27,907 nt of DNA, taken from NCBI GenBank assembly GCA_001823605.1, contig MHUZ01000021.1:1-27907 (forward strand). Reading direction: 5' to 3'. Positions 8,308 to 24,807 of this stretch are shown here, piece by piece. The translations under genes and the position numbers were made by a program. The stretch's first letter is position 1, and every line of letters starts with the position of its first letter. Source of the DNA: Candidatus Yonathbacteria bacterium RIFOXYD1_FULL_52_36. GTDB taxonomy: Bacteria; Patescibacteriota; Minisyncoccia; Phycocordibacterales; UBA1539_B. The notes under the pieces were generated by a model that worked only from the letters and a program-made list of their open reading frames with translations, was not told the DNA's origin and ran no database searches.

Positions 8308-9510
8308 ATGGCATTTAATAAAGAGCCGTCACAACAACAGACACCAGGAGAATTAAAGATAACCGAATATGCCAACAGAGTAACGGCCGGGGAGCCACTC
8401 GACTCAATTCTTGATGGTCTGCCGCCTGGAATGAGGCAAGTGGTCGAAGCCCGTGTGAATGCTCAAGGCGAAGATCCAACTGAGAAGCCGGCGGAAAGCC
8501 AACCTGACCACGCCTTGAGATTGCCTCCTCAATACGCAGGCTTGCCATCAGAAATTGTGGAAGACCTTTGGATAATTCCGGTGTATGTCGATCCTGAAAA
8601 GACACAGAGTGAACTAAAGAAAAAGGAGGCGGTTCTTAATGCCCTACGACACAAAGAAAGAGCGGGGGCTGTGTCCGAAGAGAATGAAGCGCTTAAATGG
8701 GCAGATGATACGGCAAGAATTTCAGAAATAAGAGAGCAAATCGGTATTCCTACTCCTGAACAAGGAATAACCTCATTTGAACAACTTGGGGCCATAGAGT
8801 CGATGAGCGTCGAAGAATTTGCCGTGTATCTGGCAGCAGAGGCAAAAAAACAAGGAAAGGAGCTTGCGGGAAAGACCGCGTATGAGGCACTCACGGCACG
8901 CCCTGAGTGCCGTGAATTAAGAATTTCATCGGCATTCGGAAACTCAGACGCCCTAATGGAGGTGTTCCACAAAAATGGAGAAGCTATCCGAAAATTCAAA
9001 GAAGACACTGCATCAAAAGTTACAGCGGTCGATGGTGTAGAGTATGTTCCAGGTGCTTGGGATCATTACAAAATCCAATATGAACAGCGGGAACGGGAGG
9101 AGACACACAAAGGGTATATTACAATTAATAAAGATCAAATCCTTACTGAATTTACGCCAGATGTGCGCCACGAGATCGTAAAAAAACTTCGTGACGGTGG
9201 GTACCGTGGTCAAGTGAAATTCCCCGTGCTCGGCTCTAGGGCGCTCTTAAGCTACGACAACATTGTCCTTCACGGAAATGAGCTGGCTGATGTGGATCGT
9301 GGCATAGAAATAGTCCAGAATGTTTTAAATGAGGTCCGCCTGAACCATGAAGCTCCAAGGCGCGGGGTAGATGCGGCGGGAGTAGATGGCAAAAAAACCA
9401 GCTATACTGATCGAATTGCCCAGCTAGTCACGCAAGCAAGCAAAGATCCAAGCATTGATCTTGAAACAGAGATCAAAAGATTGAAGGAGCCCGAACACGC
9501 TCGAGAATGA
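8308..9510 (+). CDS. Hypothetical protein of 400 aa with atypical composition. Likely horizontally acquired.
   Basis: Long uninterrupted ORF that begins 22 nt after tRNA-Leu. GC is visibly lower than the flanks: one 60-nt sample is 40% against more than 55% around it. Codon usage is A-rich, with AGA/AGG Arg and AAA/GAA runs. The N terminus is an E/P/Q-rich, likely disordered region. No confident family was recognised. Confidence 0.7.
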   Translation: MAFNKEPSQQQTPGELKITEYANRVTAGEPLDSILDGLPPGMRQVVEARVNAQGEDPTEKPAESQPDHALRLPPQYAGLPSEIVEDLWIIPVYVDPEKTQSELKKKEAVLNALRHKERAGAVSEENEALKWADDTARISEIREQIGIPTPEQGITSFEQLGAIESMSVEEFAVYLAAEAKKQGKELAGKTAYEALTARPECRELRISSAFGNSDALMEVFHKNGEAIRKFKEDTASKVTAVDGVEYVPGAWDHYKIQYEQREREETHKGYITINKDQILTEFTPDVRHEIVKKLRDGGYRGQVKFPVLGSRALLSYDNIVLHGNELADVDRGIEIVQNVLNEVRLNHEAPRRGVDAAGVDGKKTSYTDRIAQLVTQASKDPSIDLETEIKRLKEPEHARE

Positions 9511-10806: not shown

Positions 10807-11994
10807 ATGGACACTCAGCAACAAACGCCTTCGGTGGTCATACGTACAGGGATGTATTGGACGTTCGTCATCATATACCTCGTCCTTATGCTCACTGTCG
10901 TTATCGTTATCCGCTTCTCCACGGGTCCTGGTGTTGAACACTTTGGTCTTCAGTGGAGCTGGAGCGGTCTTGCAACAATCCTCGCACTCCTCCATATATT
11001 CGCCTCGATCAAAACCCGATCAGTAGACGAACACGTTGGTGTTACGATCTTTGAAATGCCTGTGCTGGAAAAAAGGAGCCCTGGTCCGTTTCTTGCTCCG
11101 TATTTCCCAGGCATGGTGAAGGTATGGCGGATCACCCAAAATGTTCTCCAAAACCAATTCCCTGGAGAGCCTGAGCAGATCGAGTGGCGCGATGAAAAGG
11201 AAGTTTTGAATGAACTCAAAGACGGAAAACTCCCCGATGGAAAGGTGTGGCCGATCCGAGTTCCTACCGGTCCTGCACGTGAAGGAGATCGTGGCAACGG
11301 TTTGAAGTGGAGCAATGATGACCCGTTCAACGTGCAGATGGTCATCTCTGCTTCGTTCTACACTCGCTATCGCGTTAAAAACCTGTTTCAGTTCCTCATG
11401 GTCGTTGGTGGTGATACCGAAAAAGAGGCGTTGGAACGTGTCGTTAAACAACTTCGTGACAGCGGCGAGCGCGTACTGCTCAATGAGCTTAGCAGCCGTA
11501 ACCTCGCGCTGGTCATCGAAGAGACCAGCAAAATCAATCAATCCATGAAGGATGCCTTCGACAAACTAACGGAAACATGGGGTGCTGACATTGTGGAGGT
11601 CGGCGTACTCATGCCCAGTCCGGGACATGAGTTCAACATGGCGGTCCGCGAGATCGGCCAGACAAAGGCAAGGGCGCAACAAACGCGTATCACTGCCGCT
11701 GCAGAGGAGTATAGGCTTACCCAAGAAGGCACCGGCCGAGGAAACGCAAACGAGCAGGAGATTGCCGGTCGCATCCGCGGCCTAACAGAAGCTAACAAAG
11801 CTGGCATTGATCCTGTTGTCATCATAGCGGCAACCGCTGCTCAAGATATTGCAAAGAACGCCAACTATGCCTACTTCGGAGAACTTGGTGGTCTAGGCGG
11901 CATCACTGATGCTATCGCAAAAACCTTAAAGCAGGGCGGGAGCAATACTCAAAAACCCTCACCCGCATCAACTACAGGAGGTGAATCGCAATGA
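10807..11994 (+). CDS. SPFH/band-7 (stomatin/flotillin-like) membrane protein
   Basis: N-terminal TM helices, then an SPFH core (NVQMVISASFYTRYRV..., ALERVVKQLRDSGERVLLNELSSRNLALVIEETSKINQS...) and a coiled-coil A/E/Q-rich tail. The SD GAGGAG is present. Confidence 0.8.
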   Translation: MDTQQQTPSVVIRTGMYWTFVIIYLVLMLTVVIVIRFSTGPGVEHFGLQWSWSGLATILALLHIFASIKTRSVDEHVGVTIFEMPVLEKRSPGPFLAPYFPGMVKVWRITQNVLQNQFPGEPEQIEWRDEKEVLNELKDGKLPDGKVWPIRVPTGPAREGDRGNGLKWSNDDPFNVQMVISASFYTRYRVKNLFQFLMVVGGDTEKEALERVVKQLRDSGERVLLNELSSRNLALVIEETSKINQSMKDAFDKLTETWGADIVEVGVLMPSPGHEFNMAVREIGQTKARAQQTRITAAAEEYRLTQEGTGRGNANEQEIAGRIRGLTEANKAGIDPVVIIAATAAQDIAKNANYAYFGELGGLGGITDAIAKTLKQGGSNTQKPSPASTTGGESQ

Positions 11995-12713
11995 GTGGTC
12001 CATTGGTACTTCTCATCATCATGGCAGTACTTGCTCTCGTAGGCCAAATGCTTGGAAACCGCACACAGAGAAACATGCCTCTGTGTGAAGAAAGCGTACC
12101 CCCATGCGAACTCCCCGCCCCTGTGCGAAGGGGGCGGTGGTACCGATTCAGGCAATGGACAAGGGGGCTTTGGGACAGTTCCGAATCGTCAGCCACTTTG
12201 ACAATTCTTGGTCTTTGGGCGCTGGTGATGGGAGCACTGTATTTTTTCTGGCCTGATCAGTTCAAGCAATTCTGGAACTGGCGTGACCACATGGTGTTCC
12301 TGGGGCTTCCTCTTCTTTTGGTGATTATTGTTCAGGCGCTCGACAGGCCAACAAGAACACCTGCAACCAAATGGATCGGCGGAGTGCTGCTCACGACACT
12401 CATCGTGATCTACATCATCGTAGTGGCCGAGCAGTTTGGTATGTCATTCAACGGCACGGAGGAGGTTGCGGGGAGGACACTTCGGATTCCCGCTGGAGAA
12501 ACACGGTGGGTTGAGTTCGAGTTCGGCAAAACAGTGACCTATCACTGCTCTACGGATGGAAACATCCTTATCGCCGAGCAAGGATTGCCTGTTCCTTGCG
12601 GACCGAATGCACAGCGAGCAGACCTAGAGCCAACGGTCGACCCGCAAACAGGAACACTTTCTGTCGGGTTCCTTGCACCGGAAAACAGTGAAATGATAGT
12701 TCTTCTTTGGTAG
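11991..12713 (+). CDS. Polytopic membrane protein translationally coupled to the SPFH gene. Possibly an NfeD-like partner.
   Basis: Its ATG overlaps the SPFH stop as ATGA. There are about 4 predicted TM helices and a C-terminal beta-rich soluble domain (TLRIPAGETRWVEFEFGKTVTYH...). The NfeD assignment is inferred only from the typical SPFH-NfeD gene pairing. Confidence 0.6.
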   Translation: MSGPLVLLIIMAVLALVGQMLGNRTQRNMPLCEESVPPCELPAPVRRGRWYRFRQWTRGLWDSSESSATLTILGLWALVMGALYFFWPDQFKQFWNWRDHMVFLGLPLLLVIIVQALDRPTRTPATKWIGGVLLTTLIVIYIIVVAEQFGMSFNGTEEVAGRTLRIPAGETRWVEFEFGKTVTYHCSTDGNILIAEQGLPVPCGPNAQRADLEPTVDPQTGTLSVGFLAPENSEMIVLLW

Positions 12714-12762: not shown

Positions 12763-12780
12763 TTTCGTATCTGAACGCAA

Positions 12781-12803
12781 AATCGCCCCTAAGGGGCGAT
12801 TTT
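12781..12803 (-). terminator. Intrinsic terminator closing the minus-strand pilin-like operon (usable in both directions)
   Basis: Stem ATCGCCCC / GGGGCGAT with TAA loop. It is flanked by AAAA on the plus side and TTTTG on the other. It lies 23 nt downstream on the minus strand of the last gene in the array, whose stop is at 12826. Confidence 0.7.
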
Positions 12804-12825: not shown

Positions 12826-13083
12826 TTAGTATGGTCTTGGGACACCAACGACATTTGCAATGACGTTGATGATCACATACACAAGAAGCATGATCGACAT
12901 ACCAACGACTCCCCAGATCATGTGTCGCTTCCCATCTTCGCGACTCGTGTCGTCATCAAACCCTTTTACGAATTTGAGCACGCCCCACACAAAATAGAGC
13001 ACTGCGGCAGATGAGATAAGTACGATGAACGGATTGAGAATCTCTCGCGAGATCGAAGAGATAAGCTGACCTAGAGGATCCAT
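12826..13083 (-). CDS. Small two-TM protein, paralogue A of the VirB2/TrbC-like 'T4SS-pilin-like' family. Core only, with no signal peptide.
   Basis: Shared core: AAVLYFVWGVLKFVKGFDDDTSREDGKRHMIWGVVGMSIMLLVYVIINV. It lies 9 nt downstream of paralogue B. The start is taken as ATG 13081-13083. The track starts at a TTG at 13086. Confidence 0.65.
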   Translation of the reverse strand: MDPLGQLISSISREILNPFIVLISSAAVLYFVWGVLKFVKGFDDDTSREDGKRHMIWGVVGMSIMLLVYVIINVIANVVGVPRPY

Positions 13084-13095
13084 CAAAGAGTACGC

Positions 13096-13482
13096 TTAGC
13101 GAGTACGGTTGTTGATCGGGAGATCTGGCGCAGATCCTGTTGTTCCACGTCCACCGACCGTTCGAATCAAAATTCCCACCAATGCCCATACGCTCACCAT
13201 AATAGCGATCGCCACAATGCTGTGGACGATCATACTGCGAGCTTCTTTACGAGCTTCTTCGTCACCTGAATTCAAAACAAACTTTGCCAATCCCCAGAGG
13301 AAATACACCACCGCGAGTGAAACAAAGAGTGAAGCGAGGAGGTTCAAAATAGTACCGACGAACGCAAAGACATCTCCCGCGTCTGCTTGTGTACCAATGG
13401 TAAGTGGTCCCGTCGCAAATACTGCCACAGGAAGCATCGCCACGAGGATCCATGCTGAGATCTTTATTGCTGTAGAACGCAT
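13096..13482 (-). CDS. Small two-TM protein, paralogue B, with an N-terminal signal peptide
   Basis: Signal peptide MRSTAIKISAWILVAMLPVAVFA. Core: VVYFLWGLAKFVLNSGDEEARKEARSMIVHSIVAIAIMVSVWALVGIL. The alternative upstream start at 13527 is encoded by AT-rich, promoter-like sequence. Confidence 0.65.
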   Translation of the reverse strand: MRSTAIKISAWILVAMLPVAVFATGPLTIGTQADAGDVFAFVGTILNLLASLFVSLAVVYFLWGLAKFVLNSGDEEARKEARSMIVHSIVAIAIMVSVWALVGILIRTVGGRGTTGSAPDLPINNRTR

Positions 13483-13590
13483 AACGTAATTAAAAATGCT
13501 TTTATAAATAAAATTGATGATCGACACAACCTATCCTCTAGTATACGGCACACCTGGACAACCCGCAATCATACCTGTGGATAGCACCGT

Positions 13591-13935
13591 TTACGAAAGC
13601 GTGCGTACCACGATCCCCACAAATGCCCAAAAGGCGGCAATGACCGCAAGAGCGACGATTCCCCAAATCATCCGTTCCCTGCCCTCAGTGCGCCCGTCAG
13701 ACTCTGCAGAATTGCGTATATACTGCACGGCACCCCAGAGAAAATAGACAATGGTGGCAGCAAAAAGAATACTCACCAAAGGACCGATGATCTGACCGAC
13801 CACATACTGCACCAATGTCCTAAAGTCAGTAAAGTGCTCTGACACATATACCCCTTCCGCCGAAAGAACGAGCGGAGCAAATAATCCAAATGCCCCAAGG
13901 ACACTGCCGATGTTTCTTTGAACCCTAGTATGCAT
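13591..13935 (-). CDS. Small two-TM protein, paralogue C, with an N-terminal signal peptide
   Basis: Signal peptide MHTRVQRNIGSVLGAFGLFAPLVLSAEG. Core: TIVYFLWGAVQYIRNSAESDGRTEGRERMIWGIVALAVIAAFWAFVGIV. A GAGAGA SD sits 9 nt upstream. Confidence 0.7.
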   Translation of the reverse strand: MHTRVQRNIGSVLGAFGLFAPLVLSAEGVYVSEHFTDFRTLVQYVVGQIIGPLVSILFAATIVYFLWGAVQYIRNSAESDGRTEGRERMIWGIVALAVIAAFWAFVGIVVRTLS

Positions 13936-13951
13936 ATATTTATCTCTCTAT

Positions 13952-14419
13952 CTAGATCCTTTGGATCGTCCCCGCAATCGCCGTTGCCAACGCCCAAGCG
14001 CCGAGTACGATCGCCGCGCCAATAATCGTACCAAAAAATGTTTTCTTGGCATCTTCAAGTTTCTTAGTGTCTCCTCCTGCAGTCACAAAAAGAAATCCGG
14101 AGTAAATAAGCATCACCGCTATGACCGGCATCAAGATCCGCACAATCGCTTCAAGGACTTTGTGTAAAAGCTCCATGAGGCTGTTGTAGGGTGTCGGGTT
14201 CGGAAACCTGATTGTCTCCCCAGATCCTGCCACTGGCTGAACATTGGTAGTTCGAGGTGCCTGCGGCGTGATTGTACCCTGTCCCGCGGGTGGCTGTGGC
14301 GTAATGGTCCCTTGGGCATACACAACACCCCCCGGCACCGCAACAAGAACCATGCTGACCAACAGCGAACATACTGCTATGCCACCTGCGATGTACGTAT
14401 ATAGTGATTTCATGCTCAT
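13952..14419 (-). CDS. VirB2/TrbC-like pilin-like protein, paralogue D, with a signal peptide and a Pro/Thr-rich tandem repeat
   Basis: Signal peptide MSMKSLYTYIAGGIAVCSLLVSMVLVAVPGGVVYAQG. Tandem 11-mer GTITPQPPAGQ / GTITPQAPRTT. Core IAVMLIYSGFLFVTAGGDTKKLEDAKKTFFGTIIGAAIVLGAWALATAIAG. This IYGGF..T.GG...K...AKK...A.IG..IV..A pattern was recalled from memory as a CPR pilin-like family signature. Confidence 0.75.
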   Translation of the reverse strand: MSMKSLYTYIAGGIAVCSLLVSMVLVAVPGGVVYAQGTITPQPPAGQGTITPQAPRTTNVQPVAGSGETIRFPNPTPYNSLMELLHKVLEAIVRILMPVIAVMLIYSGFLFVTAGGDTKKLEDAKKTFFGTIIGAAIVLGAWALATAIAGTIQRI

Positions 14420-14425
14420 AGATTA

Positions 14426-14806
14426 TTACCCGACAGATCTAAACGGTTCTTCGAACAGGACCGTCATGACAAACTTTACGATCACCCACGCACCAAATGC
14501 CACCACTAACCCGATCGCGGCCCACAGAAAAGCATCTTTCGCATTTTGACGTGCCGTGTCGCTCCCCCCATGGATCATCAACTGAAACCCCGCATAGGCA
14601 AACGCAACCGCCGCAAGGGGAAGTGCTAACCCGTACAACAAAAAATCAACGATGTTGCGCGCCAGTTGCATAAGTTGTGTCCAGCCACATCCCGACCCTT
14701 CACATGCCGGCACGATCGCCGTCGGCGCAGTCGCGTACACAAGTACCGGAACAAAGCTTACCACGACCGCGCTTGTGCGTGCTGCATAGTCTTGAAACAT
14801 ACTCAT
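14426..14806 (-). CDS. VirB2/TrbC-like pilin-like protein, paralogue E
   Basis: Signal-like hydrophobic N terminus followed by CEGSGCGW. Core AVAFAYAGFQLMIHGGSDTARQNAKDAFLWAAIGLVVAFGAWVIVKFV. It starts 2 nt after the stop of the upstream SBP gene and ends 6 nt before D. Confidence 0.72.
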   Translation of the reverse strand: MSMFQDYAARTSAVVVSFVPVLVYATAPTAIVPACEGSGCGWTQLMQLARNIVDFLLYGLALPLAAVAFAYAGFQLMIHGGSDTARQNAKDAFLWAAIGLVVAFGAWVIVKFVMTVLFEEPFRSVG

Positions 14807-14808
14807 AG

Positions 14809-16152
14809 TTACGGCATTGATCGTTTAATACTCTCACTCAGTCGTCCATCGAGCACCGTGATCGAATCTTTCGCGTCACGTCGTGCCGAGAGCACATCTT
14901 CAATCGCCGACTGGAACGCACTTTTTGTGCTCGCCGCGTCTGGATCGACAAACCCGCGCGCAATAAGCGCTCCTCGATACACAACCTCTTTGAACGGATC
15001 ACTCTGCTCTACGGAAAGCATGTCTCGGCGGACAGGAGCAATGCCAAGCGCATCAGAAAATGCCTGAGAGAACTCCCTGCTTCCAAAAAGCCCCGCAATA
15101 TATGATCCGCCAGAAGGATTTGCCCCCGCCTTAAGTACGCCTGCCGCATATAACGTGCCGAACGTTGCCGATCTTCCCGGATCCTCAGTCTTCACTTTTG
15201 CTTGTGGTAACGGCGCCATATCAAAATTGAGATGTGGATTCTTCTGGGTGATAACTGCGTACTCGCTCGCGAACCCAAAGTAGGTTGCCAAGTCCCCCTG
15301 TGCAAAAAAATCACGTGAGACGGGAAGCGCCCGACTCCATGAATATTCTCCGCGAGTCGGGTCAGCAAATCGCGTATAGAAACGAAGTGCGGCTATAGCA
15401 GGAGAACTCGCCGACTGTACATCGCGCGCGATCACACTCTTAAGTGTTTGCGCGGCTTCTGCTCCTTCAAACATCGTGATCGCATTTCCGGTCTGCAAGA
15501 TAAGCGTGGCCAGGATCTCTTTTGCGTGGAGCACATTCTCAGACTGCCCCAACGCGATCCCGCTCTGTGCGATCGCCCCCTGTGTGGTTCCACGTTTCGT
15601 GAGTTGCACCATCGGTTCAACGTAAAACTCAGTCCACGATTGAGGCGGGTTTGCGATTCCTTCCGCAGAAAACAGGTCGCGGTTCCAATACATCACCAGC
15701 GGGTCAACCGCGATCGGCATCCCGATCATTCCCTGCGGGTAGACTAGGAGCTCAACCTCTTCAATAAATGTATTCTTGAGGTCGCGCAACGCCATCGAGA
15801 ATGGCACGAGCCGATCACGATGACGATACATTCCATCGTGCGTGAATATGACCGCATCAGGAGCACGATTTGAAGCAAGCGCTTCAGTAAGATCCGCATC
15901 AAGCGTATCGGGATCTTTTTGTACATATGCCATTCGCACTGTCTCGATCCCTGGAAATGCTTCGTTAAAGGCACTGGTAACGACCCGTTCATCAACCGTT
16001 CCCCACACCGTCACTGTGCCGTAGTTCTGCTTCGCTTTGCTCCCCCATGGCGAAGGGATAATGTCGGCGAACATAAGAAAGCCCAACATGCCGAAAAGTG
16101 CGGCTCCCATCATCAACCCTACCTGAAAAATATTCGTGCTTTTTTCTTGCAT
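14809..16152 (-). CDS. Membrane-anchored extracellular solute-binding protein (ABC-type family-1, MalE-like). No transporter partners are in the window.
   Basis: N-terminal TM helix. Family-1 SBP hallmarks are VTVWGTVDE...AFPGIETV...APDAVIF and YPQGMIGMPIAVDPLVMYWNRDLFSAEGIANPPQSWTEF. The protein is 447 aa. Confidence 0.75.
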   Translation of the reverse strand: MQEKSTNIFQVGLMMGAALFGMLGFLMFADIIPSPWGSKAKQNYGTVTVWGTVDERVVTSAFNEAFPGIETVRMAYVQKDPDTLDADLTEALASNRAPDAVIFTHDGMYRHRDRLVPFSMALRDLKNTFIEEVELLVYPQGMIGMPIAVDPLVMYWNRDLFSAEGIANPPQSWTEFYVEPMVQLTKRGTTQGAIAQSGIALGQSENVLHAKEILATLILQTGNAITMFEGAEAAQTLKSVIARDVQSASSPAIAALRFYTRFADPTRGEYSWSRALPVSRDFFAQGDLATYFGFASEYAVITQKNPHLNFDMAPLPQAKVKTEDPGRSATFGTLYAAGVLKAGANPSGGSYIAGLFGSREFSQAFSDALGIAPVRRDMLSVEQSDPFKEVVYRGALIARGFVDPDAASTKSAFQSAIEDVLSARRDAKDSITVLDGRLSESIKRSMP

Positions 16153-16155
16153 ACG

Positions 16156-16704
16156 TTATCCGGTGTTCTTCTTCATAACAATACCATAATGGTGCGCACC
16201 GGCATCAAAGAGCGGTTTTTCATATCGAAACCGCTCGCCTTCAAAAATACGCCGTGCCTCATCGGCACGCACGAGCTGTCGTACGGTTGGTCCTGCGCCG
16301 CCAAACGAGCCTGACCAGTCGATCACGATCGCTTTACCGCCATTCTTGAGTACGCGCCACGCTTCCCGTGCAATACCGGCTCGATCCGGTGCCTGGAACA
16401 ATACGTTGGCAACTAGCACGAGATCGACGGACGCATTACGAAGCTTGGTTCCTCCTTCGCGTTCGATATCACCCCACACCACTTCCACATTCCCCTTGCG
16501 CGACTCGCGCGCTTTGAGGCTCAGTGTAGCAACAAGATCTTTTTGTACTTCAACCGCATAGACCTTGCCTGTGTCTCCCGCGGCTTCCGCAAGTGCCAGC
16601 GTGTACATTCCCGAGCCGGCACCAAAGTCCGCGACCTGCATTCCCTCCGTCACGGAAGCCTCCTTAACTACTTTTTTGGGATCAGAAAATTCACTCATTA
16701 TCAT
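16156..16704 (-). CDS. Class I SAM-dependent methyltransferase, small and soluble
   Basis: Motif I VADFGAGSGMYT. An acidic post-I residue (AVEV). Motifs II/III are VDLVLVANVLFQ ... LKNGGKAIVID. The first ATG at 16704 is embedded in the -10 element. A second ATG at 16698 is the probable leaderless start. Confidence 0.78.
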   Translation of the reverse strand: MIMSEFSDPKKVVKEASVTEGMQVADFGAGSGMYTLALAEAAGDTGKVYAVEVQKDLVATLSLKARESRKGNVEVVWGDIEREGGTKLRNASVDLVLVANVLFQAPDRAGIAREAWRVLKNGGKAIVIDWSGSFGGAGPTVRQLVRADEARRIFEGERFRYEKPLFDAGAHHYGIVMKKNTG

Positions 16705-16746: not shown

Positions 16747-16771
16747 GGGGAAAACACCCTTAAAAAGGGTG
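16747..16771 (-). terminator. Intrinsic terminator of gyrA
   Basis: Minus-strand reading is CACCCTT-TTT-AAGGGTG followed by TTTTCCCC. It lies 60 nt downstream of the gyrA stop. Confidence 0.7.
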
Positions 16772-16830
16772 CGCTCAAAGCGCGGCGAACGCCCAGAACT
16801 GGATGAGAAGCGCGGGATTTCACGCGTCGC

Positions 16831-22955: not shown

Positions 22956-24734
22956 TCAATTTGCACGGATCTTTACCGATGCCGTACGGAGCGTCACGCC
23001 ACTCAGATCCTTTGCCACGAACGTGACCGTGTACTCCCCGCTTGAACGCCACTTCCAATTCCTCACGCTCACCAGAGCCTCTTTGTTCAATGAGTCCGCA
23101 CTATCGCGCATAGCGTTAAGCGTTCCACCATCCACTTTCCAATACATTGTGTACTGCGGAAGCGTGTACCCGCCAAGCGACGCCTTAAATGTTTGCGTGT
23201 CTGAAAGCGTCGCCCCGTTCGTCGGCGCAACGATCGTAATAGTGCCCGGAGTCGCCGCAGGACCGACCGAAAGCGTTGCCACATTATTCCTCCACGTATA
23301 GAGCCTCGACCAATTACTGGCAAACGCACCCATTTTCAGTGTGTACGAACCATTACTTGCGGGTGTCCAGTCAAGTGAATACTGTTTTGTTTCCCCCGCT
23401 GCAAAATTCTGCCCCGAGAAATATCGCTGAAACACCTTGCGCCCCTGACCGTCGTAGATCTCGTAATCAATGATCGCATTCGAGACCGCAGTATCGCTCT
23501 GTGCGGATACGCCAAGCGTTGCCCTTTGTCCTGCCGTAAGTGTTCCCGCGGCAACGAGCGCTGCCGAAAATGTCGCGGTCTGTGGTTCTGGCGGGGGCGG
23601 TGGCGGCGTTTCGCCATTGATCGTGCCAAACCACTGGCGCATCACCTCTTCAGCAGGTTTGTTCTGCGGTGTGTAATCTTTGTTCCCTGTTCCGCCAGCA
23701 TCGGGGTAACTTATCCAATTCCACAAGTACACTCCCCGCATATACGAGGAGGTTCCCCAGTAACTCAAAAGCGCCTCGTAGAGCCGCGCCTGAAGCTCAG
23801 CATTGTACGGCGCATCGGTCCACGATTCATAGGGTTTCATGTTGGCCCCGTTGACACTACGGTATCCCACTTCGCTGAAGATGATTGGTTTGTTGTATTG
23901 GTTATAAAATGGCTGCAAGTGAGTATCATTGAGTTGGTCCCACGCTGACACAAATGAAGCGACCGAGTTCTGTGAATCACCCGGAAGACTGAAGTATGCC
24001 GAGATGCTTATGAAATCCACCGATGGCCAAAACCCGACATATGCCTTTTCATTGCTGATCCAATCATTGGGATCAGGATACGAGGAATTCGCCTCGTAGG
24101 TAACGTTGCCGGAATATACCCCGCGCACACGATTGATAAGCGCGACCCAGCGATCGGTCTGTCCATTGTTTTTGTTCGCGAGCGTTACCATTTCGGTACC
24201 GATCGAAAAGTTCTCCGCACCGTTTGTCTGTGCAAGGGTTGCAATGCGCACCAAAAGGTCCCCATAGGTTTGGAACCACGCCGCTTTATCATTTGGATTG
24301 ATCCTTCCGCGCCAATCATGGGTAAGCGGTTCCGCGTGCACCTTCACGGTTACTTGCAGTCCGATCGAGCGCGCATACCGGATCGCTTCCGCAAGTGATG
24401 CGTCAGTCGGCGTACCGGTGCCAGTACGATAAATATCACTTGAGGTGATCGATGTCTGATAGTACGTTGCAACGAGCCCTACATGGGTTGCGCCCGTTGC
24501 TTTGAGATCGCGCAATGACGCCTTGAATGATTCACTCGCATAATCAGTCGAGGAGCGCGCTACGATGCTCGCCCCTTTGTGCCACCCCGTCACCGCCGCA
24601 TCGGCTTTGGGTGTCGGCGCAATCACTGGTGCGAACGACATCCCCACCACTGAAAACAACATAAGAAAAGAGATTGCACGATGACCAATGCCTCTTGCAT
24701 AAAAATTCATCACATATTTTTTTGTCTTTGTCAT
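22956..24734 (-). CDS. Secreted glycoside hydrolase (clan GH-A-like TIM barrel) with a poly-Pro linker and two C-terminal beta-sandwich domains
   Basis: Signal peptide MTKTKKYVMNFYARGIGHRAISFLMLFSVVGMSFAPVIA. Candidate catalytic glutamates lie in FSIGTEMV and IIFSEVGY (acid/base and nucleophile of retaining TIM-barrel hydrolases). PPPPPPEP linker. Two Ig/CBM-like domains follow. The start was chosen at ATG 24732-24734. Alternatives are 24788 (track) and 24710. Confidence 0.7.
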   Translation of the reverse strand: MTKTKKYVMNFYARGIGHRAISFLMLFSVVGMSFAPVIAPTPKADAAVTGWHKGASIVARSSTDYASESFKASLRDLKATGATHVGLVATYYQTSITSSDIYRTGTGTPTDASLAEAIRYARSIGLQVTVKVHAEPLTHDWRGRINPNDKAAWFQTYGDLLVRIATLAQTNGAENFSIGTEMVTLANKNNGQTDRWVALINRVRGVYSGNVTYEANSSYPDPNDWISNEKAYVGFWPSVDFISISAYFSLPGDSQNSVASFVSAWDQLNDTHLQPFYNQYNKPIIFSEVGYRSVNGANMKPYESWTDAPYNAELQARLYEALLSYWGTSSYMRGVYLWNWISYPDAGGTGNKDYTPQNKPAEEVMRQWFGTINGETPPPPPPEPQTATFSAALVAAGTLTAGQRATLGVSAQSDTAVSNAIIDYEIYDGQGRKVFQRYFSGQNFAAGETKQYSLDWTPASNGSYTLKMGAFASNWSRLYTWRNNVATLSVGPAATPGTITIVAPTNGATLSDTQTFKASLGGYTLPQYTMYWKVDGGTLNAMRDSADSLNKEALVSVRNWKWRSSGEYTVTFVAKDLSGVTLRTASVKIRAN

Positions 24735-24807
24735 GGTGAAATTAATTAAAAGTGAGTAGTGCACGATGAGCATACCTATAGTAAACACCTTGTCTCATTA
24801 ACCTCGC

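Follow-up and report, generated by a model that had tools for sequence, protein, structure and literature searches.

A five-gene array of VirB2-like pilin homologues encoded behind an anchored solute-binding protein in Patescibacteria

Much of the diversity of uncultured bacteria belongs to the Patescibacteria, whose way of life is attachment to other cells. The present analysis concerns a stretch of 27,907 nucleotides from the Candidatus Yonathbacteria genome RIFOXYD1_FULL_52_36 (contig MHUZ01000021.1 of assembly GCA_001823605.1), hereafter the window, in which five consecutive genes encode small and strongly diverged homologues of the VirB2/TrbC pilins of type IV secretion systems (T4SSs). 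Comparison with related loci indicates that this array is a fixed cassette of five subunits, apparently always co-encoded with a membrane-anchored solute-binding protein (SBP), and that its five paralogues are ancient, fixed in order and non-interchangeable. Published work has already described Patescibacteria with divergent VirB2-like pilins in tandem, and the locus is one more instance of this kind; the coupling to an SBP and a methyltransferase gene, the position next to gyrA and the strict orthology of five positions appear in no paper of the literature searched. With modest confidence, we lean towards a model in which the five pilins are subunits of a pilus-like or stalk structure of a Patescibacteria-type T4SS, the machinery for which is encoded elsewhere and at which the SBP acts as a receptor or adhesin. 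The genes of the array, numbered from 1 to 5, are the following.

14426..14806, minus strand: pilin 1, 126 amino acids (aa); leader with a probable cleavage site between VYA and T, a cysteine pair (PACEGSGC) and a two-helix hairpin
13952..14419, minus strand: pilin 2, 155 aa; leader ending VYA before Q, a Pro/Thr/Gln-rich linker containing QGTITPQ twice, and a hairpin
13591..13935, minus strand: pilin 3, 114 aa; leader ending LSA before E, and a hairpin; three hydrophobic segments
13096..13527, minus strand: pilin 4, 143 aa if begun at a GTG and 128 aa if begun at the ATG of codon 16; leader ending VFA before T, a hairpin and a C-terminal tail of 20 residues
12826..13086, minus strand: pilin 5, 86 aa from a TTG start or 85 aa from the ATG that is its next codon; a hairpin only, without a leader

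An earlier note on this DNA, made from the letters alone, had described five minus-strand genes in one operon, and the listing of open reading frames (ORFs) bears it out in sizes, coordinates and spacing: the successive gaps from pilin 1 to pilin 5 are 6, 16, 63 and 9 nt, and the SBP gene ends 2 nt before pilin 1. The note's by-eye estimate of divergence, below roughly 35% identity, likewise agrees with measurement, since the pairwise local identity of the paralogues ranges from 16.5 to 33.3% with a mean of 26.7%. A search within the array found no DNA-level repeats joining its genes, from which it follows that the duplications are old.

The suggested kinship with VirB2/TrbC and with the T4SS-pilin-like proteins of Patescibacteria also held up. 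Specifically, a Pfam scan places all five proteins in PF18895 (T4SS_pilin), with 48.4, 39.5, 34.4, 34.5 and 35.0 bits for pilins 1 to 5 against a gathering score of 26.6 bits; each protein matches independently, at E-values of 1e-8 to 1e-12, and PF18895 is also the precomputed family of the identical proteins in public contigs. Pilin 1 furthermore reaches 33.1 bits against PF04956 (TrbC/VirB2) and is the only one above the gathering score of that family, 27.9; pilin 2 (20.5 bits) and pilin 3 (11.6 bits) stay below it, and pilins 4 and 5 do not match. In NCBIfam, all five match best with NF045849, a family of pilin-like conjugal transfer proteins (Mbov_0395) known from integrative and conjugative elements (ICEs) of Mycoplasma. 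With 31.9, 23.9, 29.6, 27.6 and 36.6 bits (E = 2e-5 to 3e-9), they fall short of its curated cut-off, which is 40, and are thus relatives of this family without being members of it. The match covers the whole hairpin of 80 residues, and the model comes from an element of the monoderm MPF-FATA type; it describes an ICE gene, however, whereas the array stands in a chromosomal housekeeping context.

The proteins of the array recur with 100% identity as "hypothetical proteins" (A2408_01210-01225) in the Candidatus Yonathbacteria genome RIFOXYC1_FULL_52_10, a 766-kb assembly of the class Paceibacteria (GCA_001823595.1). The family beyond them is very large: an exhaustive profile search returned 76,996 cluster representatives at E <= 1e-3, and a word-indexed search recovered 118 proteins, nearly all of them annotated as PF18895. 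Many of the top matches are single polypeptides in which 2 to 17 tandem hairpins follow one leader (P0239, P0240, P0253, P0304); P0239, of 552 aa, consists of a leader and six hairpins, and P0304, of 1775 aa, contains 17 matched stretches. Such fusions imply either that hairpins assemble side by side or that these proteins are polyprotein precursors. At the other extreme stands a solitary PF18895 gene, P0008 (locus L006, 10001-10396, opposite strand), which is 38% identical to pilin 1 and sits between rpsC (S3) and rplP (L16) in the ribosomal-protein operon of another Patescibacterium.

The shared architecture, a two-helix hairpin according to the earlier note, is seen in several ways. A hydropathy scan finds three hydrophobic segments in pilins 1 to 4, namely the leader and two transmembrane (TM) segments, and two in pilin 5. 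Common to the aligned five are a Y-x-x-G motif that ends helix 1, a charged loop of the form G(G/S)D...(A/G)(K/R) and a second helix. The AlphaFold2 (AF2) model of pilin 1 shows a leader helix followed by a hairpin (helices 42-78 and 83-118), at a predicted local distance difference test score (pLDDT) of only 63. Its top match among solved structures in Foldseek is the VirB2 of the Agrobacterium tumefaciens T-pilus (8exh_A; 23% identity), at a non-significant E-value of 3.9, and neither pilin 1 nor a profile of 74 sequences, when compared by sequence with solved structures, recovered a pilin; the hairpin is too simple for fold searches to discriminate. Diderm VirB2, TrbC and TraA pilins (PF04956; 8exh) are likewise small pro-pilins with a leader, two hydrophobic helices and a short charged loop, pilin 1 scores above the TrbC threshold, and 8exh_A is the top, though non-significant, Foldseek match. 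In contrast to them, four of the five proteins do not reach that threshold, the host is monoderm, no VirB machinery adjoins the genes, and five distinct paralogues are present where diderm systems have one major pilin.

The N-termini called for some revision. Two of the proteins had been said to lack a signal peptide or to carry extra N-terminal modules; pilin 5 is indeed leaderless, and is alone in this, whereas the additional stretch of pilin 2 is a linker and no separate module. The 15 extra N-terminal residues of pilin 4 hinge on the choice of start codon: AGAGGA lies 6 nt upstream of the GTG, and in other, identical contigs from this population gene callers settle on either length, 143 or 128 aa. 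The cleavage site given for pilin 1 was read by eye rather than with a prediction tool. The linker of pilin 2 (residues 36-80) reads QGTITPQPPAGQGTITPQAP in the window; in a relative (locus L007, 4461-4985) it is rich in Gly, Thr, Ser and Asn and wholly different, while the hairpin is conserved, and on this comparison the linker looks fast-evolving and surface-exposed.

The strongest regularity emerges from related loci. When one genome per species was scanned with an SBP alignment, at least 595 stretches were found to encode a relative, and the best 80 were examined by running a pilin hidden Markov model (HMM), built from the pilin alignment, on all of their ORFs. Pilin ORFs are present in 77 of these 80 loci, the other three having less than 600 nt downstream of the SBP gene. 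All of these ORFs follow the SBP gene immediately and share its strand, at a median gap of 32 nt, and every locus with at least 3 kb of downstream sequence has one or more (61/61). Among these 61 loci, five pilin ORFs occur in 30, six in 20, seven in 5 and four in 4. Upstream, a methyltransferase gene directly precedes the SBP gene in all 78 loci with room for it, often with overlapping stop and start codons, and GyrA is encoded upstream in 61 of 66. The same block surrounds two pilin homologues that the pilin profile by itself brought up, on contigs some 600 kb long, ERZ25039512 contig_80216 and ERZ27297473 k141_3549054. The link between SBP and pilins, of which the earlier note had recorded the 2-nt spacing alone, is the most conserved, and the least explained, feature of the locus.

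Close relatives, with SBPs 67-68% identical, have the five genes in identical order. In L007, which is such a relative, orthologues are 54-82% identical, a level at which synonymous sites are probably saturated, as against 21-35% between paralogues, with pilin 3 at 54% and pilin 5, the most conserved of the five, at 82%; GyrA is 92% identical between close relatives. Even distant genomes, with SBPs 37-51% identical, encode GyrA, the methyltransferase, the SBP and about five small PF18895 proteins. Across 37 five-gene loci at species level and the window, the best BLASTP match of a pilin in another locus occupies the corresponding array position 187 times out of 190. Furthermore, the positions bear their own signatures in these 38 loci: a cysteine pair of the form PC.G.....C at position 1, the strongly conserved core IYsGFLFV.AqGn...Ak...GAw at position 2, a common YFLWG...WGLV-type sequence at positions 3 to 5, and, at position 5, two hydrophobic segments without a leader in 38 of 38 loci. 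Near-perfect positional orthology, together with a signature for each position, shows that the five genes are ancient and non-interchangeable. It argues against a variable repertoire or varying copy number and for five non-redundant subunits.

The genes and sites that accompany the array in the window are listed below.

14809..16152, minus strand: SBP of the MalE/CUT1 fold, membrane-anchored, 447 aa; 2 nt upstream of pilin 1
16156..16704, minus strand: class I S-adenosylmethionine-dependent methyltransferase, 182 aa (Methyltransf_11, 57.8 bits); ends 3 nt before the SBP gene
16771..16792, minus strand: terminator-like hairpin and T-run in the gap that separates gyrA from the methyltransferase gene; from a consensus scan only, which is weak evidence
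12779..12803, minus strand: stable hairpin about 20 nt past the stop codon of pilin 5 (-26.9 kcal/mol; z = -6.05 against shuffles)

The hairpin at 12779-12803 probably marks the end of the operon, the site at 16771-16792 may be its upstream boundary, and the methyltransferase gene is probably its first gene. Taken together, the two sites make a transcription unit of methyltransferase (16156-16704), SBP and pilins 1 to 5 likely. As for the methyltransferase, modification of the pilins or the SBP and a housekeeping enzyme that merely shares the transcript are both conceivable.

The SBP is recognized by SBP_bac_8 (46.6 bits) and SBP_bac_1 (39.4 bits), both above cut-off. In its AF2 model (pLDDT 89.6), a linker joins a TM helix (residues 8-28) to a MalE-type fold, and Foldseek matches it to maltose-binding protein (MBP) and other sugar-binding proteins with probability 1.0. 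Among solved structures its nearest relative by sequence is 4r9f, "MBP1", presumably a binder of manno-oligosaccharides. In family scores and in its confident, MBP-like model the protein resembles CUT1 SBPs such as MalE; it differs from them in its anchor, which is an N-terminal TM helix and not a lipid, in the pilin genes that always come next, and in the lack of a cognate transporter nearby. No partner permease or ATPase is encoded within about 48 kb, that is, the window and 10 kb past each of its ends, and the sole ABC gene nearby, about 15 kb away, is a fused exporter-type ABC_membrane and ABC_tran gene. Within the anchor, at least 80% of 85 sequences keep F9 and Q10, two residues that both alignments show as conserved; F28 is nearly invariant in an alignment of 25 sequences. 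This is unusual for a simple signal anchor, and the conserved residues may point to a contact within the membrane.

Two other proteins touch on glycans. At 22956-24788 on the minus strand, 8 kb from the SBP gene, the window encodes a glycoside hydrolase of 610 aa with a GH113 and a Wzt_C-like carbohydrate-binding domain; known GH113 enzymes are beta-mannanases, and this protein and the SBP may share a glycan theme. About 15 kb past the left end of the window (locus L095, 18468-20873), a gene for a protein that exceeds 1000 aa and combines fn3 with polysaccharide-lyase domains encodes another candidate surface protein directed at host glycans.

The connection of the array with secretion rests on work in other Patescibacteria. 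Tandem divergent VirB2-like pilins were described there by Wang 2023 (PMC10633639): SEML1_0014-0019 of Candidatus Southlakia epibionticum belong to PF18895, some of them also to PF04956, and proved essential for epibiotic growth by transposon sequencing (Tn-seq; PMC10633639). Quinonero-Coronel 2025 surveyed 3,035 Patescibacteria genomes with PF04956 and PF18895 and counted, in 383 assemblies, 441 arrays that comprise 2-11 VirB2-like genes; identity within arrays averaged 25% (PMC12102498). In view of this literature, the statement of the earlier note that the function of the array is uncharacterised either way was too strong. A 2025 review calls such arrays remarkable, since the T4SSs of monoderms are otherwise without pilins. 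The array analysed here shares with the published ones PF18895 with or without PF04956, the tandem arrangement, an identity of about 25%, the leader and hairpin and a Patescibacterial host, and a genome with identical proteins is in the survey dataset. It differs from them in having no T4SS cluster within about 48 kb, in belonging to a methyltransferase/SBP operon beside gyrA and in its exact positional orthologues across species.

A direct comparison links both settings. A Southlakia-like Saccharibacterial contig carries six PF18895 genes, divergent from adjoining TrbL/VirB6-like genes and followed by Hsp20, as in SEML1_0014-0020. All six pilins match the position-specific HMMs at 1e-11 to 1e-18, and the cassette proteins are thereby homologous to pilins of a T4SS cluster that are experimentally essential; the six and the five positions show no one-to-one mapping. 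As to the kind of T4SS, a monoderm ancestry of the MPF-FATA type has been reported for Patescibacterial VirB4, and the best match to NF045849, from Mycoplasma ICEs, fits this reported ancestry. The survey treats the MPF-FATA class as devoid of virB2 homologues (PMC12102498); the NF045849 match suggests that monoderm MPF-FATA elements do carry a small VirB2-like protein.

On the reading that we find most likely, the locus forms the distal portion of an operon that is conserved in Paceibacteria and encodes a methyltransferase, an anchored sugar-type SBP and five VirB2/TrbC-like paralogues. Pilins 1 to 4 would be exported with a Sec-type leader, probably removed by signal peptidase, and pilin 5 would insert without one. 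All five are predicted to form two-helix hairpins in the cytoplasmic membrane, with the termini outside and the short, strongly charged loop inside. From this membrane pool, five non-interchangeable subunits would be assembled into a pilus-like or stalk structure of a monoderm, MPF-FATA-derived T4SS, for which VirB4, VirB6 and the other assembly machinery would be encoded elsewhere on the chromosome. The co-translated SBP would most likely act at this structure on the surface too, as an adhesin or receptor that binds glycans.

Several observations recommend this T4SS-pilin model: the PF18895 and TrbC scores, the homologous arrays in the T4SS cluster of Saccharibacteria and the essentiality of SEML1_0014-0019, the hairpin in the model of pilin 1, and the mean identity of 26.7%, close to the published 25%. 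To these comes the listing of GCA_001823595.1, the genome with identical pilins, as VirB4 "Yes" in Table S1 of the survey (PMC12102498), a table in which the locus tags A2408_* do not occur. The listing suits one of two options offered by the earlier note, a pilin stockpile for a distantly encoded machine. Location in or near the virB4 cluster, within about 20 CDS, is no strict requirement for such arrays, since the survey saw a nearby pilin in no more than 1135 of 1948 assemblies (PMC12102498). Fixed positional orthology speaks for non-redundant subunits, and the tandem-hairpin polypeptides indicate that hairpins work side by side. The data show the family, the architecture, the operon layout, the conservation with its fixed positional orthology and the distance from T4SS genes; from them we infer T4SS assembly, filament formation and the roles of the SBP and the methyltransferase.

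Other facts weigh against the model. No T4SS pilus has been reported on any Patescibacterium, and reviews speak of a "possibility". Pfam finds no VirB4, VirB6, VirD4, TrsD, VirB3 or PilB in the window or in the 10 kb past each end, which agrees with the earlier note as to the window itself, where all large ORFs were scanned and no VirB4, VirB6, VirD4 or type IV pilus ATPase was found; a walk along the flanks beyond both window ends meets only housekeeping genes and the polysaccharide-lyase/fn3 surface protein. Physical linkage to T4SS genes, the usual argument for a common function, is absent here, and the sole conserved linkage is to the SBP and the methyltransferase, neither of which is a known T4SS part. 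Among eight cassette-bearing assemblies, VirB4 is listed as "Yes" for six and "No" for two, which cannot be told apart from the overall frequency of VirB4 in the dataset and is confounded by the incompleteness of metagenome-assembled genomes (MAGs); the two draft genomes listed as VirB4-negative nevertheless count on this side, incomplete MAGs though they are.

How the hairpins are put together, and whether a T4SS is involved at all, can be read in other ways. The proteins might be T4SS parts that build no extended pilus and instead a channel or stalk, embedded in the membrane or crossing the cell wall, as a heteromeric ring of hairpins at a monoderm translocon. We regard this as rather unlikely. 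In its favour, monoderm MPF-FATA systems are normally free of pili, the best NCBIfam match (24-37 bits, with a cut-off of 40) comes from ICEs of the wall-less Mycoplasma, and five fixed orthologous positions, together with fusions of 2-17 hairpins, suit a defined oligomer better than an open-ended polymer. The nearest curated relatives, TrbC and VirB2, are however filament subunits, and the variable low-complexity extracellular linkers at position 2 suggest exposure at the surface. A further step away, the anchored SBP and the five hairpin proteins could work independently of any T4SS, as a surface or membrane apparatus for adhesion or the capture of host-derived glycans, or as an unconventional uptake pore. 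In its first form this recalls the archaeal "bindosome" of Sulfolobus, in which binding proteins are organised by pilin-like proteins. Such independence, which we consider improbable, would account for an SBP-pilin link that is invariant (61/61 loci) and recurs in loci found by the pilin profile alone, for an SBP without permease or ATPase nearby and an array without T4SS genes within about 48 kb, for the two cassette-bearing MAGs listed without VirB4, and for the conserved anchor residues F9, Q10 and F28, which hint at contacts within the membrane. It has to contend with homologous arrays that lie within the T4SS cluster of Saccharibacteria and lack an SBP, with VirB4 in six of the eight cassette-bearing genomes checked, with the want of an energy source and of a precedent for transport through VirB2-like hairpins, and with an analogy that belongs to another class of pilins. 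In a more specific form, to which we assign an equally low likelihood, the methyltransferase, SBP and five pilins would constitute a separate apparatus that is conserved across Paceibacteria, in which a defined heteromer of hairpins displays or gates the SBP, maybe without T4SS ATPases. Such a structure would serve to capture glycans of the host or to dock onto it; if this holds true, the conjugative-pilin fold would have found a new use, and the bindosome idea of archaea a counterpart in bacteria.

Two more readings concern the nature of the array itself. The survey proposed antigenic or host-range variation, in analogy to the VirB2 paralogues of Bartonella and Anaplasma (PMC12102498), and the other option of the earlier note was a variable surface repertoire with changes in copy number. 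There is something to be said for this: identity within the array is only 16-33%, the pilins outpace gyrA between close relatives (54-82% as against 92%), array size varies from 4 to 7 among distant species, and the linker at position 2 is hypervariable. Yet the best match falls on the same position in 187 of 190 comparisons, the relative with an SBP about 67% identical, like more distant ones, keeps five genes in the same order, no DNA repeats are at hand to drive recombination, and each position has its own motifs and leader status. A repertoire of this kind is already largely refuted by these comparisons, and we think it very unlikely. That the proteins are unrelated to pilins and mimic them through hydrophobicity alone, as holins, ABC-2 permease fragments or other two-TM proteins might, is hardly credible. 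Sub-threshold Pfam matches to ABC2_membrane (17.3 bits) and DUF3262 (17.5 bits) exist, and fold searches cannot discriminate a hairpin, but all five proteins lie above the PF18895 cut-off while the other families remain far below theirs, and the loop and helix motifs are conserved. The identity as holins or ABC-2 fragments was rejected on the Pfam scores.

The genes of the locus are of no new kind, but it bears on a wider question. In the one tractable species, a T4SS and a VirB2-like array are essential for the attached lifestyle, which raises the question of what structure the pilins build and why there are several. The present comparison sharpens this question for Paceibacteria, the largest class, in which a fixed set of five orthologous pilins always occurs with an anchored SBP and a methyltransferase and apart from the secretion ATPase. 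It thereby replaces the idea of antigenic variation with a testable model of heteromeric assembly plus a glycan receptor, and it provides six named protein targets, the five pilins and the one SBP.

The remaining genes of the window belong to chromosomal housekeeping: they encode ClpB, superoxide dismutase, cysteine desulfurase, IF-2, RbfA, MscL and an SPFH protein, and further GyrA, ribosomal protein S1, the GH113 protein, Pth, signal peptidase and HisRS. Pfam scans of the window revealed no ICE features around the array. Two ORFs on the plus strand match no Pfam or NCBIfam family, one of 400 aa at 8308-9510 and one of 240 aa at 11991-12713, and neither is kept beside the array in distant genomes. 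The latter encodes a membrane protein, has a 4-nt overlap with the SPFH gene at its stop codon and runs convergently towards the end of the pilin array; in the close relative its product is only 42% identical.

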